The notes below the pieces were generated by a model that saw nothing but the letters and a program-made list of their open reading frames with translations, was not told the origin of the DNA and made no database searches. The position numbers and the translations under genes were made by a program. A stretch of 46,858 nucleotides of DNA from Candidatus Uhrbacteria bacterium (GTDB lineage: Bacteria > Patescibacteriota > Patescibacteriia > UBA9934 > GWF2-40-263). Of the stretch, positions 19,649 through 26,794 are shown one piece after another; position 1 is the first letter of the stretch; each line of letters starts with the position of its first letter. The stretch lies in assembly GCA_016209325.1 (NCBI GenBank), contig JACQWJ010000025.1:1-46858 (forward strand), given 5' to 3'.

Positions 19649-21787
19649 ATGCCTTTCCAGCTTACATCCGACTACCAGCCTGCCGGAGACCAGCCCAAGG
19701 CCATTCGGGAATTGACTGAAGGGCTTCAGGCCGGCGCGCGGCACCAGACCCTGCTTGGCGTGACCGGGTCGGGCAAGACCTTCACCATGGCGAACGTGAT
19801 TCAGCATATCCAGCGACCCACGCTCGTGATCGCGCACAACAAGACGCTCGCTGCCCAGCTGTGTAACGAGTTTCGGGAATTCTTTCCCCACAACGCGGTT
19901 GAGTACTTCGTCAGCTATTACGACTACTACCAGCCCGAGGCCTACCTGCCGCGCACGGACACCTACATTGAAAAGGAGGCCATGATCAACCAGGAGATCG
20001 ATCGGCTGCGCCACGCCGCCACTCAGGCGCTCCTGTCCCGCGAGGACGTCATCATCGTCTCTTCCGTTTCCTGCATCTACGGCTTGGGCTCTCCGAAAGA
20101 ATACGAGGCAACCGTGCTTCATTTGACCGTCGGGGACGCCGGCGTCACGCGCGAGGAAGTCCTCCACCGGCTGGTCGACATGCAGTTCGAGCGCACCACG
20201 GCCGACGTGGAGCGCGGCCATTTCCGCGCCCGCGGCGACGTGATCGAGGTCATGCCCGTCAACGAGGAGCGGCTGTACCGCATTCAGTTCGACGGCGGCC
20301 GGATCGGCGGCATCCAGCTTCTGGACGGGGTTTCGCGTCGGGAATGGGAACGCCCCCGCGACGTCTGGATCTTTCCGGCCAAGCATTACGTGGTCTCGCC
20401 ACTTCTGAAGGATCAGGCGCTCCGCAACATCGAGCGGGAGCTCGGGGAGCAGCTGGCGCAGTTCGACGCCGAGGGGAAGCTCCTTGAGGCCGAGCGCCTG
20501 AAGCGCCGTACGCGCTACGACCTCGAGATGATCCGCGAGGTGGGTTCCTGCAACGGCATCGAGAACTATTCGCGCCACTTCGACGGCCGCGCGATGGGCG
20601 ATCCGCCGTTCACGCTTCTCGACTACTTTCCGAAGGATTTCGTCGCCATGATCGACGAGTCGCATGTGACGATTCCGCAGGTCGGCGGCATGTACGAGGG
20701 GGACCAGGCGCGCAAGCGGACGCTGGTCGAGCACGGGTTCCGCCTGCCGTCCGCCCGTGACAACCGCCCGCTTACCTTCGCCGAGTTTGAGGCGCGCGTC
20801 GGCCGCGTGATTTTCACGAGCGCCACCCCGGGCCCGTATGAGCGCGCGAAGAGTTCGCGTGTCGTCGAGCAGAACATCCGCCCCACGGGCCTGGTCGATC
20901 CGGAAATCGACGTGCGCCCCGTGACTCCCGGCAAACCCCCTCTTGGCTCCCCCTTGATAAGGGGGGGAAACGCGATTTCCCCCCTGCCCGAGGGGGGGCA
21001 AGGGGGGGTGGGAGCCTGGGGTCAAGTCGACGACCTGATCGGCGAGATCAAGGACCGCGTCGCGAGGAACGAGCGGACCCTCGTGACGACGCTCACGAAG
21101 AAGATGGCCGAGGACCTGTCCGAGTTCCTGCGCGAGCAGGGCGTGAAGGTCCAGAACCTCCATTCGGACGTCGAAACCCTCGACCGCAGCACCAATCTGA
21201 CCGAGTTCCGCAAGGGAACCTACGACGTCCTCGTCGGCGTAAACCTGCTGCGCGAAGGTTTGGACCTGCCGGAAGTCACCTTGGTCGCCATTCTCGACGC
21301 GGACAAGGAAGGGTTCCTGCGCTCCGAGACGTCGCTCATCCAGACCATCGGCCGCGCGGCGCGCAACGTCCTCGGCCGGGTCATCCTGTACGCCGACAAC
21401 GTGACGGGGTCGCTGGAGCGCGCGTTACGCGAAACCAACCGTCGTCGCGAGATCCAGCTCGCCTACAACAAGGAACACGGCATCACGCCGAAGACCGTCG
21501 AGAAGAAAATCAGCGACATTCGCGATATGTTCGGCGGGCAAGGGGAATCGACGACCGAACAGATTCTCAAACTCGAGCTCACTGCGGACACGCGCGAGAT
21601 CGAGGAGGTCATCCGGTCCAAGGAATACGACATGAAGGAGGCGGCACGGCATCTCGACTTCGAGACCGCCGCCATCCTGCGCGACGAGATCGCGCTCCTG
21701 CAAAAAGAGTTGGATCAGAAGACGAAAAAATCCACGGTGCCGAAGAAGCGGAAGAAAGACGTACCTTCGGATTCATTGGATGCATGA
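19649..21787 (+). CDS. uvrB: Excinuclease ABC subunit B
   Basis: GDQPKAI, GVTGSGKT, YYDYYQPEAY, DESH, QTIGRAARN, C-terminal FETAAILRD. Confidence 0.98.
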   Translation: MPFQLTSDYQPAGDQPKAIRELTEGLQAGARHQTLLGVTGSGKTFTMANVIQHIQRPTLVIAHNKTLAAQLCNEFREFFPHNAVEYFVSYYDYYQPEAYLPRTDTYIEKEAMINQEIDRLRHAATQALLSREDVIIVSSVSCIYGLGSPKEYEATVLHLTVGDAGVTREEVLHRLVDMQFERTTADVERGHFRARGDVIEVMPVNEERLYRIQFDGGRIGGIQLLDGVSRREWERPRDVWIFPAKHYVVSPLLKDQALRNIERELGEQLAQFDAEGKLLEAERLKRRTRYDLEMIREVGSCNGIENYSRHFDGRAMGDPPFTLLDYFPKDFVAMIDESHVTIPQVGGMYEGDQARKRTLVEHGFRLPSARDNRPLTFAEFEARVGRVIFTSATPGPYERAKSSRVVEQNIRPTGLVDPEIDVRPVTPGKPPLGSPLIRGGNAISPLPEGGQGGVGAWGQVDDLIGEIKDRVARNERTLVTTLTKKMAEDLSEFLREQGVKVQNLHSDVETLDRSTNLTEFRKGTYDVLVGVNLLREGLDLPEVTLVAILDADKEGFLRSETSLIQTIGRAARNVLGRVILYADNVTGSLERALRETNRRREIQLAYNKEHGITPKTVEKKISDIRDMFGGQGESTTEQILKLELTADTREIEEVIRSKEYDMKEAARHLDFETAAILRDEIALLQKELDQKTKKSTVPKKRKKDVPSDSLDA
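20924..21019. repeat. In-frame palindromic insertion in uvrB
   Basis: Two inverted C/G-run units encoding PGKPPLGSPLIRGGNAISPLPEGGQGGVGAW. Confidence 0.85.
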
Positions 21788-21794
21788 TGTTCCT

Positions 21795-21923
21795 TGAGAC
21801 TGTAGAAAAATGAAAAACATGGGGCTCTTTTATCACTTTTGACTTTTTCACTGCGCAAATACGGCCTTGTATTCTGTTGATTCCGCAGAATGTCATTTCG
21901 AAAAATATTTTTCTACAGTCTCA
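21795..21923. mobile_element. MITE / non-autonomous IS derivative
   Basis: Perfect 17-bp TIR tgagactgtagaaaaat / atttttctacagtctca around an AT-rich core with no ORF. No clear target-site duplication. Confidence 0.75.
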
Positions 21924-21940
21924 CGGTAAAAATTCACTCC

Positions 21941-21983
21941 AAACCAAACCCCGCCAATCCCGAGGAAGGTCTGGATGGCGGGG
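21941..21983 (-). terminator. Terminator downstream of the tRNA-like gene
   Basis: Minus strand ccccgccatcc...ggattggcgggg followed by tttggttt. Confidence 0.55.
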
Positions 21984-24901: not shown

Positions 24902-24931
24902 AGATTTATTCGTATCTGAATGCCATGCGGT

Positions 24932-25387
24932 ATGGGTTCTCCTAAAGAGCGATTTAAAATGATTCCGGCCGTCTACGTTCTTCTGGCGAGAGAAGGAAAG
25001 GTCCTCCTCATTCGCCGTTTCCAGACCGGCTATTGCGACGGCATGTACACCCTGCCGTCGGGCCATGTGGACGGCGGCGAGTCACTCGTCACCGCCGCAG
25101 TTCGGGAGGCTGCAGAAGAGGTGGGGGTTCGGATCCGTCCGGACCTCATGCGCCTCAGCCATGTCCGCCATCGAAACGCGGAAGACGGCGAACGTCTCGA
25201 TTTCTTTTTCGTGGCAAAATCATGGGAGGGGGAACCGACCAATGCCGAGCCTCACAAATGCGACACATTGCGCTGGGAACAGCTTCAAAACCTTCCAGCG
25301 AACACGCTACCGCATGTTCGTGAAGTGATTACGGCTATTGGGCACGGGGAAACGTATTCAGACGAGGGATTCCACACGTCCGCTTGA
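24932..25387 (+). CDS. Nudix hydrolase
   Basis: Nudix box GHVDGGESLVTAAVREAAEEVG; NAEPHKC. Confidence 0.9.
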   Translation: MGSPKERFKMIPAVYVLLAREGKVLLIRRFQTGYCDGMYTLPSGHVDGGESLVTAAVREAAEEVGVRIRPDLMRLSHVRHRNAEDGERLDFFFVAKSWEGEPTNAEPHKCDTLRWEQLQNLPANTLPHVREVITAIGHGETYSDEGFHTSA

Positions 25388-25414
25388 AGTTGTTGGATTT
25401 TTTTACCGCAATCC

Positions 25415-26794
25415 ATGATTCCACCAGCGATCAAAGTCAAAAATAACGAGCTTCCCGACAACTCCGGGGTTTACTTTTATTACGACGCCGGCGGAACCCT
25501 GCTGTATGTCGGCAAAGCCACTTCGCTTCGGAAGCGGGTCGGGTCCTACTTTTTCAAGGCGCATGACAATCGGATCGCGGACTTGGTCCGCAACATCGTT
25601 TTCATCGACTATATCGAGACGCCGACGGTGATCGAGGCGCTCGTGCTTGAGGCCAATCAGATCAAGGCGCTCCGGCCGAAGTACAACATTCTGCAACGCG
25701 ACGACAAGAGTTTCCTCTATCTCGCGGTCACGAACGACCCGTATCCGAAGCCGCTCCTGATGCGCGGTCTCGACCTGGAGCGTTTGGGCGTCGATCCGTT
25801 CGACCGCACGCTGTCGCCCCGCGCCCGCAAGCTGTTCCTGGCCGTGTTCGGACCCTATACGAGCGGATCTTCGCTCCGTCGCGCGCTCGAGTTCATCCGC
25901 AAGGCGATTCCGTGGAGCACGTGCGATCCACCGGAGGCAACCCCCTCCACCTCCCCCTTCGTAAGGGGGAGAGTTGCCCGTCCCTGCTTCAACGTCCATA
26001 TCCGCCTGTGTCCCGGAGTGTGTGCCGGCAAGATCAGCCGGGAGGACTACCGTAAGATCATTCGTCAGCTCATTCTCTTTTTTGAGGGCAAGAAGGCACA
26101 ACTCGTGCGTCAGATGAAAAAAGAGATGGAAGCTGCGTCCAAAGCCCAGCGGTTTGAAGAGGCCAGCCGCTTGCGCAACACCATCTTCGCCCTGGAGCAC
26201 ATCCAGGACGTGGCCCTCGTCATGCGCGACGATGTCGAGCTGCCCTTCAGTCGTACGCCGGAGGAAGGGATCGATTTGAATGGCCGCATTGAAGCGTATG
26301 ACATCAGTAATATTTCCGGAACGTCCGCCGTCGGTTCGATGGTTGTCTTCCAAGAGGGAAAGCCTGCCAAGGACCAATATCGAAAATTCAAAATCAAGAC
26401 CGTCCGCGGCTCCGATGACTTTGCGATGATGGAAGAAGTCATGCGCCGCCGCCTGGCGCGTGCGAAGCATTTTCCAAATGCCTGGCCGCTTCCGGTCCTC
26501 ATGGTCATCGACGGCGGGGAAGGGCAGGTCAGTCACGTCCAGGAAGTTTTGAATGAGATGGAAATCAAACTTCCGATCGTCGGCCTAGCAAAGGGGTTCG
26601 ACCGCAAGCAGGACCGCCTGGTCTTCGACCGGACCGACCCGGAACTCGTCCGCGTCGCCACCCGCGGCAAGGAGCTGTTCCAGCAGGCCCGCGACGAGGC
26701 GCACCGCTTCGCGGTCGCGTACCATCGCAAGGTGCGAGCCAAGGCATTTCTTCCAAAACACAAAAAGAGATATCATGGAGTGAATCCTCTATGA
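25415..26794 (+). CDS. uvrC: Excinuclease ABC subunit C (short form lacking the C-terminal HhH)
   Basis: GIY-YIG (GVYFY...LYVGKA), UVR FEEASRLRN, RIEAYDISN, IDGG, RDEAHRFA. Confidence 0.93.
   Translation: MIPPAIKVKNNELPDNSGVYFYYDAGGTLLYVGKATSLRKRVGSYFFKAHDNRIADLVRNIVFIDYIETPTVIEALVLEANQIKALRPKYNILQRDDKSFLYLAVTNDPYPKPLLMRGLDLERLGVDPFDRTLSPRARKLFLAVFGPYTSGSSLRRALEFIRKAIPWSTCDPPEATPSTSPFVRGRVARPCFNVHIRLCPGVCAGKISREDYRKIIRQLILFFEGKKAQLVRQMKKEMEAASKAQRFEEASRLRNTIFALEHIQDVALVMRDDVELPFSRTPEEGIDLNGRIEAYDISNISGTSAVGSMVVFQEGKPAKDQYRKFKIKTVRGSDDFAMMEEVMRRRLARAKHFPNAWPLPVLMVIDGGEGQVSHVQEVLNEMEIKLPIVGLAKGFDRKQDRLVFDRTDPELVRVATRGKELFQQARDEAHRFAVAYHRKVRAKAFLPKHKKRYHGVNPL
25936..25978. repeat. In-frame palindromic insertion in uvrC
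   Basis: ggcaac-cccctccacctcccccttcgtaagggggaga-gttgcc. Confidence 0.8.

Follow-up and report, generated by a model that had tools for sequence, protein, structure and literature searches.

An RPE-like hairpin repeat read in frame in uvrA, uvrB and uvrC of a Candidatus Uhrbacteria genome, and a DUF559 nuclease gene as its candidate partner

The 46,858-nt contig JACQWJ010000025.1 of a Candidatus Uhrbacteria bacterium (assembly GCA_016209325.1; the whole stretch is called the window below) raises the question of why copies of one palindromic repeat should lie in frame within uvrA, uvrB and uvrC at the same time. An earlier note, made from the letters of the window alone, had listed five palindromic sites, four of them in these genes. 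It had likened the repeat to Rickettsia palindromic elements (RPEs) that add peptide loops to proteins, and had offered targeting of DNA-repair genes, tolerance within them, de novo loop creation or a regulatory role as explanations. We followed this up in the genome of the window (hereafter G000; 766 kb in 37 contigs, the window being C18; 59% G+C; 89% complete) and by searching 30 related genomes. The explanation that we consider probable is that a dispersed hairpin family, similar to repetitive extragenic palindromes (REPs) and to the miniature transposable elements with inverted repeats known as MITEs, is tolerated in a few permissive loops, with a DUF559 nuclease as its candidate partner enzyme.

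The repeat family and its in-frame copies in the uvr genes

All five palindromic sites are present. The pattern CCYCCTTNNNAAGGRGG matched the window five times (2698, 2739, 20949, 23322 and 25953) and had no match in any of 100 dinucleotide shuffles, and an nhmmer profile built from 12 full genomic copies recovered the four Uvr sites. With loci merged at E<0.1, the profile gave 35 loci in G000, including the 12 full copies. These align over ~95–100 nt and define an element of ~100 nt with two C/G-rich hairpins and the ends GGCAACC...GGTTGCC, laid out as (CC)GGCAACCCCCT, a spacer of 5–6 nt, hairpin 1 (TCCCCCTTnnnAAGGGGGA), ACACGCGTTCC..., hairpin 2 (CCCCTCCTTnnnAAGGAGGGG) and nTAGGGGAGGTTGCC(GG), so that full copies carry the terminal inverted repeats (CC)GGCAACC...GGTTGCC(GG). 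The basic unit is ~40 nt long and consists of one pyrimidine-rich hairpin (TCCCCCTTnnnAAGGGGGA or CCCCTCCTTnnnAAGGAGGGG) followed by a tail in which the 3′ arm recurs, reading nTAGGGGAGGT and then an end peculiar to the genome (TGCC or CAC in G000). Two units with their tails outwards make the 100-nt element, and two units with their tails inwards bracket a DUF559 gene. A hairpin scan gave stems of 8–9 bp beginning with T/C-C and loops of mostly 3–4 nt. Inverted dimers of the short hairpin unit, as in the 12 two-hairpin elements, are the abundant form.

The family is dispersed and sits mostly just downstream of genes. Of the 12 full copies, ten are external to called genes, one is within QueA and one overlaps an N-terminus whose call is probably wrong; 8 of the 11 inspected are placed between same-direction genes, mostly ≤60 nt from a gene end. 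About half of the reading frames of the full copies (33 of 72) are free of stop codons. The free copy of the window, a full element with GGCAACC...GGTTGCC ends, occupies 2676..2777 (plus strand) between two minus-strand genes, with hairpins at 2697–2715 and 2737–2757 (nhmmer E 4.3e-29; fold −23 kcal/mol, z −2.8), and beside it stands an extra partial tail arm, GAGGGGAGGTTAGGAGGGGTTGCC (2785..2811, plus strand), with a weak profile match (nhmmer E 0.88). The single-strand folds beat those of shuffles, with z from −2.1 to −3.4, except for the first uvrA copy.

The repeat-bearing genes uvrB (19619..21787, plus strand; 722 aa; Pfam UvrB, UvrB_inter, Helicase_C, ResIII and UVR), uvrA (22241..24901, plus strand; 886 aa, of the short class by Pfam and PDB alignment) and uvrC (25415..26794, plus strand; 459 aa, with GIY-YIG, UVR and RNase H-like endonuclease domains in Pfam) were all found intact by Pfam analysis of the window proteins, which upheld the claim that the insertions preserve the frame. 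So was the NUDIX hydrolase gene between uvrA and uvrC (24920..25387, plus strand; Pfam NUDIX), which is without the repeat. The uvrB copy carries two hairpins (20930..21016, plus strand; aa ~438–466, PGKPPLGSPLIRGGNAISPLPEGGQGGVGA; nhmmer E 3.8e-8) and lies between VRPVT and GQVDDL. Its length had been put at ~30 extra residues; this holds against Bacillus caldotenax UvrB (31 aa), and against the empty site of the related genome G001 the insert amounts to 75 nt or 25 aa (~20936–21010). The first uvrA copy (22930..22978, plus strand; aa ~231–246; nhmmer E 3e-6) is a decayed single hairpin in a loop of the UvrB-binding domain, at a gap of the PDB alignment. It measures 24 nt against G001, whose protein is 8 aa shorter here, and its fold was matched by 23 of 200 shuffles (z −1.17). 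The second uvrA copy (23306..23345, plus strand; aa ~356–369; nhmmer E 1.1e-6) is a single unit, a tail with a perfect 9-bp hairpin, placed after the second CxxC of the zinc module; the insert is 45 nt long against G001, and the site is empty there and in most relatives. The 23-nt identity reported between this copy and the intergenic one is real (2735–2757, TTCCCCTCCTTACCAAGGAGGGG), but it is with the reverse complement. Finally, uvrC holds a mini-element of GGCAAC, one hairpin and GTTGCC (25936..25978, plus strand; aa ~175–188, ATPSTSPFVRGRVA; nhmmer E 4.2e-4), an insert of 27 nt against G001 that falls between the first and second of four invariant cysteines. Perfect stems of 7–9 bp are kept in three of the four Uvr copies, and the uvrB, second uvrA and uvrC copies have fold z values of −2.1 to −3.4.

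Groundwater contigs from four runs of one study, runs that may include the source sample, cross the uvrC insert and the two in uvrA without a single difference. The uvrB insert is spanned by none of the contigs listed, which break at the repeat. One run contained a joint 22978>23313 with 30 other letters, which looks like another repeat copy rather than a deletion. The UvrA of the window belongs to a short class of ~850–890 aa from which the stretch aligning to residues 311–424 of solved UvrA is absent. Relatives have, at other places, a further UvrA paralogue of ~950–1000 aa; G000, at its 89% completeness, yielded one UvrA only.

When the copies were compared within G000, the four Uvr copies fell in different subfamilies. 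Coding copies tended to be mutual nearest relatives, the second UvrB hairpin grouping with the copies in LeuRS and in an Ile/Val-type synthetase, and the UvrC copy with those in KsgA and at the first uvrA site. This mutual relatedness fits either old copies trapped in genes or convergence on stop-free variants. The different subfamilies, together with the finding that the uvrC copy is closest to the KsgA copy, which lies on a different contig, weaken local hopping within the uvr cluster as the origin of the four copies; the first uvrA copy and the uvrC copy are, as a caveat, fairly alike. One subfamily, CCCCCCTGCCCGAGGGGGG with AGGGGGGGTGG, was seen solely inside G000 genes, namely at the second UvrB hairpin (window 20979–20997) and at C2:23420–23440 and C8:29196–29218 of G000 (LeuRS and the Ile/Val-type synthetase).

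Permissive loops, empty sites and the question of targeting

To place the inserts in the proteins, they were mapped on solved or predicted structures. By alignment, the UvrB insert replaces the single residue between ...DVRPT(427) and GQIDDL(429) of solved UvrB, in the link between the two helicase-like domains. The first UvrA insert corresponds to an alignment gap within the UvrB-binding domain of solved UvrA, and the second follows the second CxxC of the zinc module, where solved UvrA has the ~110 residues that are missing from the short class. No solved structure covers the UvrC insert region. In an AlphaFold model of UvrC built from 20 sequences (mean predicted local distance difference test score, pLDDT, 80.3), residues 177–187 were predicted at <50, the sole such stretch in the region, between blocks at 84–89. 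The invariant cysteines of UvrC are C170, C191, C199 and C203 (window 25922–26030, aa 170–203); the insert widens the spacing between the first two from 11–12 to 20 residues, and in the related genome G006 the gap exceeds 40. In E. coli UvrC the four cysteines bind an iron–sulfur cluster, which makes the tolerance of this loop notable. The inserts thus occupy linkers or low-confidence loops, away from catalytic motifs.

The relatives show these sites both empty and filled. G001, which is labelled as the same genus as G000 and is its sister in a UvrA+UvrB tree (ultrafast bootstrap, UFBoot, 99), is empty at all four Uvr sites, with clean DNA gaps of 75, 24, 45 and 27 nt. MnmA, Dus and LeuRS likewise lack the insert in G001, as they do in G011, and QueA of G001 is shorter at its site; neither a BLAST match to the element nor a DUF559 gene was found in G001. 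The Uvr sites are empty in most of 19–23 relatives. The UvrB linker is minimal in 10 of 20 genomes, and 7 of the 20 carry 15–33 extra residues there: those of G000 and G006 belong to the same family, and at least four others (G004, G016, G008 and G025) are unrelated hairpin-forming sequences. Part of the linker insert of G017 UvrB (L003) is a run of N. Among 60 pattern-readable UvrB genes of a broad metagenome sample, the linker is minimal in 53, and linker expansions are therefore a trait of the G000 lineage; the sample is mostly at 58–67% identity and informs on linker lengths only, not on the date of the uvrB insertion. Two of the metagenome UvrB sequences (L307 and L339) carry linker inserts with VIARSGATKQS-like and HCEEGGPDEAI-like peptides, of a kind known as translations of another widespread repeat.

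The other sites behave in the same way. Other repeat-like peptides fill the first uvrA site in G006, G003, G007, G016 and G017; the second is filled by the same family in G005 and, at the protein level, by a similar peptide in G016. The UvrC insert of G006 is larger than that of G000 and begins with the same sequence, and QueA, MnmA, LeuRS and Dus are likewise filled or empty depending on the genome (five genomes). The case in which relatives have the same peptides without palindromic DNA was not seen among the relatives. These comparisons show that a small set of permissive loops is filled recurrently. They support the RPE-like view, one family both between and inside genes with empty orthologous sites, along with its corollary of de novo loop creation, and they support tolerance in the Uvr genes, as the same loops are filled by the same or by unrelated repeats in other genera.

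The same family occupies the same site in the non-sister genome G006 in UvrB, UvrC, QueA, MnmA and LeuRS, and the in-gene copies shared with other genera could accordingly be old orthologous insertions that were precisely lost in many lineages including G001. We regard this as rather unlikely, although several observations count in its favour and against recurrent filling. In UvrB, the inserts of G000 and G006 agree in site, orientation, length (75 nt), the loop TTGATAA and a shortened spacer, and in UvrC they agree in site and orientation; these two may be inherited rather than parallel. In seven proteins, moreover, G000 is about as far from G001 as from G006. However, the grouping of G001 with G000 means that several precise losses would be needed per site. 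In QueA and LeuRS the G006 copy stands in the opposite orientation to the G000 copy, which makes those two independent events. The first UvrB hairpin, read directly from the sequences, lies in different frames in the two genomes, and the ends of each insert resemble the variant of its own genome. In addition, the identity between G000 and G006 inserts (0.43–0.77) is at or above that of flanking third positions (0.36–0.49), unlike decay from an old ancestor. Recombination with a G006-like donor was also considered and set aside: within 40 aa of the inserts, identity is not consistently higher to G006 than to G001, being so only at LeuRS and MnmA. A further possibility is that the in-gene hairpins are kept for a role at the RNA or DNA level, such as translational pausing, RNase sites or protein-binding sites. 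The perfect stems in three of the four Uvr copies, and a second UvrB hairpin in which both arms differ between G000 and G006 with pairing kept, would suit it; but the first uvrA copy has lost its hairpin, the sites are uninserted in most relatives, and copying from other genomic copies could also keep the pairing, and we consider such a role very improbable.

We then asked whether excision repair is singled out. Gene calls, the hairpin scan and Pfam together gave 13 coding copies in 11 genes of G000. Four copies lie in the three Uvr genes, and the other nine lie in eight genes: LeuRS, the Ile/Val-type class I tRNA synthetase, QueA (which carries a full two-hairpin element), MnmA (two units), Dus, KsgA (at the C-terminal tail), MurB (in the N-terminal region) and one open reading frame without family. 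Two further profile matches overlap called N-termini and were taken as miscalled starts. Pfam domains stand on both sides of the inserts in UvrA, UvrB, UvrC, LeuRS, the Ile/Val-type synthetase, QueA, Dus and MnmA. The coding copies are stop-free, multiple-of-three variants in loops or linkers, read as 9–30 extra residues that, depending on the frame, encode SPL(I/V)RGG, LPLTKGE or SPPxRGGxxGG.

The element, or selection, might specifically favour excision-repair genes, with inserts that change UvrABC activity and make the cell, for example, a mutator or alter its repair. Of the called coding DNA of G000, 0.96% belongs to Uvr genes, yet these hold 4 of the 13 coding copies (nominal binomial P 5.7e-6, a post hoc value, the window having been chosen for its Uvr inserts), and 3 of 20 BLAST-detectable copies in G000 lie within uvr genes. 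Published surveys, in the passages of PMC3733652 on which we draw, likewise find intragenic REPs concentrated in UvrABCD, RecBCD and PolI genes. Against this stand the nine coding copies in tRNA synthetases, tRNA and rRNA modification enzymes, MurB and the unnamed reading frame, and the relatives, 17 of which hold 119 BLAST-detectable copies with only 1 within a uvr gene (uvrA of G005); the overlap was judged by eye from coordinates, and BLAST misses decayed copies such as both UvrB inserts. The Uvr inserts also lie outside catalytic motifs, other genera fill the same loops with unrelated sequences, and the Uvr copies come from different subfamilies whose nearest relatives include the KsgA, LeuRS and Ile/Val-type synthetase copies. 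A preference for excision repair therefore seems to us improbable, and targeting as a property of the element, which the earlier note had put forward, is not supported.

As far as tested, we infer that the Uvr excess in G000 is explained by four unusually permissive loops rather than by targeting. Some points nevertheless tell against this tolerance. It can account for the excess only if Uvr loops are much more permissive than average, which is supported for the relatives. The gene calls on G000 that underlie the coding copies are home-made, and the copies in KsgA, MurB and the unnamed reading frame are doubtful as internal inserts, which would leave 10 copies in 8 genes. Under tolerance, insertion would not be aimed at repair genes; selection would remove copies except in the few loops that bear extra residues, of which UvrA, UvrB and UvrC happen to have four. 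A copy inside a gene would then be trapped, its removal requiring a precise in-frame deletion.

A DUF559 gene framed by the units

G000 has two DUF559 loci, both with inverted units on either side whose tails point towards the gene. One is intact (C24:20593–20907; PF04480 1.5e-32; PDB 3hrl E 3.3e-19) and the other is split by a frameshift (C32:11059–11369). The sequence upstream of DUF559 reads ...TCCTCCCCTTCCCCAAGGGGAGGACTAAGGAGGGGTCACCCCTATG, its mirror image follows directly after the stop codon, and the unit tail provides AAGGAGG ~10 nt upstream of the ATG. DUF559 is the sole gene found between units. The earlier note had named a DUF559 endonuclease or a REP-associated tyrosine transposase (RAYT) as possible mobilisers; the first is bracketed by the repeat at both loci and the second is unflanked. 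A PF01797 search of G000 returned IS200-like fragments at contig ends of C11 and C24 plus two weak matches, with no unit beside the two fragments inspected, and RAYT was accordingly rejected as the mobiliser. The two fragments (C11:18842–19042 and C24:1–189) are of IS200/IS605-type Y1 transposases and probably belong to an insertion sequence present in several copies, at which the assembly breaks. The G000 searches, which covered PF01797 and PF04480 and no other transposase families, gave no parent insertion sequence with a transposase and the same ends.

To compare the flanks of DUF559 with those of other genes, we scored inverted repeats between the 150-nt flanks, with the 99th percentile of 580 control genes as the cut-off. 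Across G000 and its relatives, 21 of 25 DUF559 loci lay above the cut-off, a score that 6 of the 580 controls reach. Across the phylum, 20 of 29 loci in 29 genomes did so, with the same hairpin-plus-tail design in different sequences. Whole two-hairpin elements flank DUF559 in G011, G012 and G025, and in G008 the gene is flanked by a different hairpin family that is also inserted in the UvrB linker of that genome (23 of 24 nt identical). DUF559 is present in 6 of 7 relatives with at least nine element matches, in 5 of 10 with 1–3 and in 3 of 13 with none, samples that kinship makes non-independent. At least 124 stretches, drawn from many phyla, contain the exact unit of 31–32 nt, CCCCTCCTT-N3-4-AAGGAGGGG-N-TAGGGGAGG; by record title, the hosts among the matches listed include Patescibacteria, Nitrospirota, Gammaproteobacteria, Poribacteria, Armatimonadota, Chloroflexota and Planctomycetota. 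In 80 of these stretches, DUF559 was found ≤400 nt from the unit at 6 loci, for which we reckon a chance expectation of well under 1%.

DUF559 (a Vsr-like PD-(D/E)XK nuclease) may, with less certainty than the tolerance of the inserts, be the enzyme proper to the family. In that case it would make a nick or a cut at the unit, and repair or template switching would copy units to new places, in a scheme analogous to that of RAYT with REPINs but with a different enzyme. The gene could instead be a bystander, either a Vsr-like repair gene of the usual kind or a small gene carried as mobile cargo, flanked because the repeats supply ribosome-binding and terminator signals, while the hairpins spread by replication slippage, template switching or an unseen transposase. 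This has perhaps a little under one chance in three. The unit tail does give a Shine–Dalgarno sequence before the ATG, and REP-like repeats lie near gene ends in general, in this genome as in passages of PMC3733652. G014 has 12 element matches and no DUF559 was found in it (97% complete), and a Caulobacter DUF559 protein is described in PMC12907096 as a Vsr-like repair enzyme and not as a mobile-element enzyme. Clear flanking repeats are absent from 4 of the 25 and 9 of the 29 loci, the flank control consists of G000 genes only, and no nuclease activity, mobility or presence/absence polymorphism was seen. These points weigh against a partner enzyme. Yet a bystander does not readily account for a flank score that so few control genes reach, or for the regular arrangement with the tail toward the gene on both sides, usually 0–45 nt away. 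The flanking units match each genome's own dispersed family, including the different one of G008; the gene has a patchy distribution, with several copies in some genomes and one pseudogenised copy in G000; and identical units adjoin it in several phyla.

Two observations concern the surroundings of the elements and of other genes. The element ends often read CCGGCAACC / GGTTGCCGG (e.g. window 2676–2682 and 2771–2781), and some contain GCCGGC. A Caulobacter DUF559 protein is linked to a methylase of YGCCGGCR in the abstract of PMC12907096, which may be coincidence. At C4:8127–16131 of G000, three neighbouring genes (8127–9875, 10034–11794 and 14326–16131, the last without Pfam family) have strong flank inverted repeats, with scores of 39–73 against a control median of 16, and the region looks like another repeat family or a mobile region.

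Known repeat systems and what the pairing would mean

RPEs number 44 copies in R. conorii, nearly half of them within open reading frames as in-frame fusions (PMC10969869, in a passage summarising Ogata et al. 2000/2002). The family described here resembles them, as far as such summaries go, in being a dispersed palindromic repeat of a reduced genome with many copies in frame in unrelated housekeeping genes, where it adds a short peptide that appears compatible with the fold; in both, one family lies between and inside genes, orthologues have empty sites, and the inserts fall in fold-tolerant places. The host phylum and the sequence are different, and the likeness is one of behaviour only. Unlike RPEs of ~150 bp, the repeat measures 27–75 nt in genes and ~100 nt in full, is built of hairpin-plus-tail units and is tied to a DUF559 gene.

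Di Nocera, De Gregorio and Rocco (2013; PMC3733652) describe, in the sections drawn on here, intragenic REPs of the GTAG and CGTC super-families that are concentrated in genes for excinuclease ABC, UvrD, PolI, RecBCD and tRNA pseudouridine synthase. The named hosts are uvrB of R. conorii, uvrA of Thioalkalivibrio and two uvrA genes of O. terrae, with two inserts each. In the same sections, linkers are argued to make REP inserts possibly neutral, mutator effects are speculated for REPs in Uvr and Rec genes, and CGTC REPs are given as lacking a dedicated transposase, with a terminal CGTC for which many repeats have TGTC or CCTC, stems of 8–9 bp that start with A/T pairs, and loops of 4–5 nt. The present family shares with these REPs stems of 8–9 bp, frequent inverted dimers and a position mostly just downstream of genes. 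It differs in having no GTAG tag (GTAG or CTAC occurs anywhere in just 2 of 12 full copies), in stems that start with C/T and loops of 3–4 nt, and in the presence of a candidate partner gene. At the first hairpin, the one scored for a CGTC-type tag, TGTC adjoins in 11 of 12 full copies and CGTC in 0 of 12.

With REPINs and RAYT (the REPtron, as it is termed in PMC3733652 in the part cited) the family has in common a single- or few-copy gene bracketed by inverted copies of a dispersed repeat, and abundant inverted dimers without the gene. The bracketed gene, however, encodes a PD-(D/E)XK Vsr-like nuclease and not a Y1 (IS200-like) transposase. The G000 protein matches PF04480 and 3hrl of the Vsr/DUF559/DUF2726 clade of PD-(D/E)XK nucleases, and PMC3424549 places DUF559 in one group with Vsr and with the homing endonuclease of a group I intron. 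The known or proposed roles of the clade are T/G mismatch repair and homing, and a link to dispersed repeats is absent from the literature found. Compared with a MITE derived from an insertion sequence, terminal inverted repeats are present but no target-site duplication was seen, the flanks of eight clean-ended copies being complementary (CC / GG) and not direct repeats.

Our literature search found no paper linking DUF559 to dispersed repeats and none on translated repeats in bacteria of the candidate phyla radiation (CPR). The in-frame Uvr inserts extend a known phenomenon to a new host and a new family, and the pairing with DUF559 is the part that is new to print. More broadly, DUF559 nucleases together with hairpin-plus-tail units may be selfish elements of one class that spans phyla, a 'REPtron' in which a Vsr-like PD-(D/E)XK nuclease takes the place of the tyrosine transposase and which repeatedly seeds the same permissive loops of housekeeping proteins, those of UvrABC among them, across separate lineages; we put this forward tentatively, at somewhat less than an even chance.

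Two questions have stood open in the field: why it is repair genes that the repeats enter, and by what means repeats without a RAYT move. On the first, the answer offered here is that a few linkers accept almost any insert and that lineages refill them, even in opposite orientations. For the second, DUF559 is a testable candidate: its gene has these units on both sides in G000, in relatives and across the phylum, and copies of the unit identical in sequence lie next to it in other phyla. Should the enzyme indeed act on the unit, this would be a new kind of repeat-spreading system and a way for very small genomes to acquire protein loops. A class of this sort, if true, would give a dedicated enzyme to palindromic repeats without a known one and would be a steady source of new protein loops in reduced genomes.

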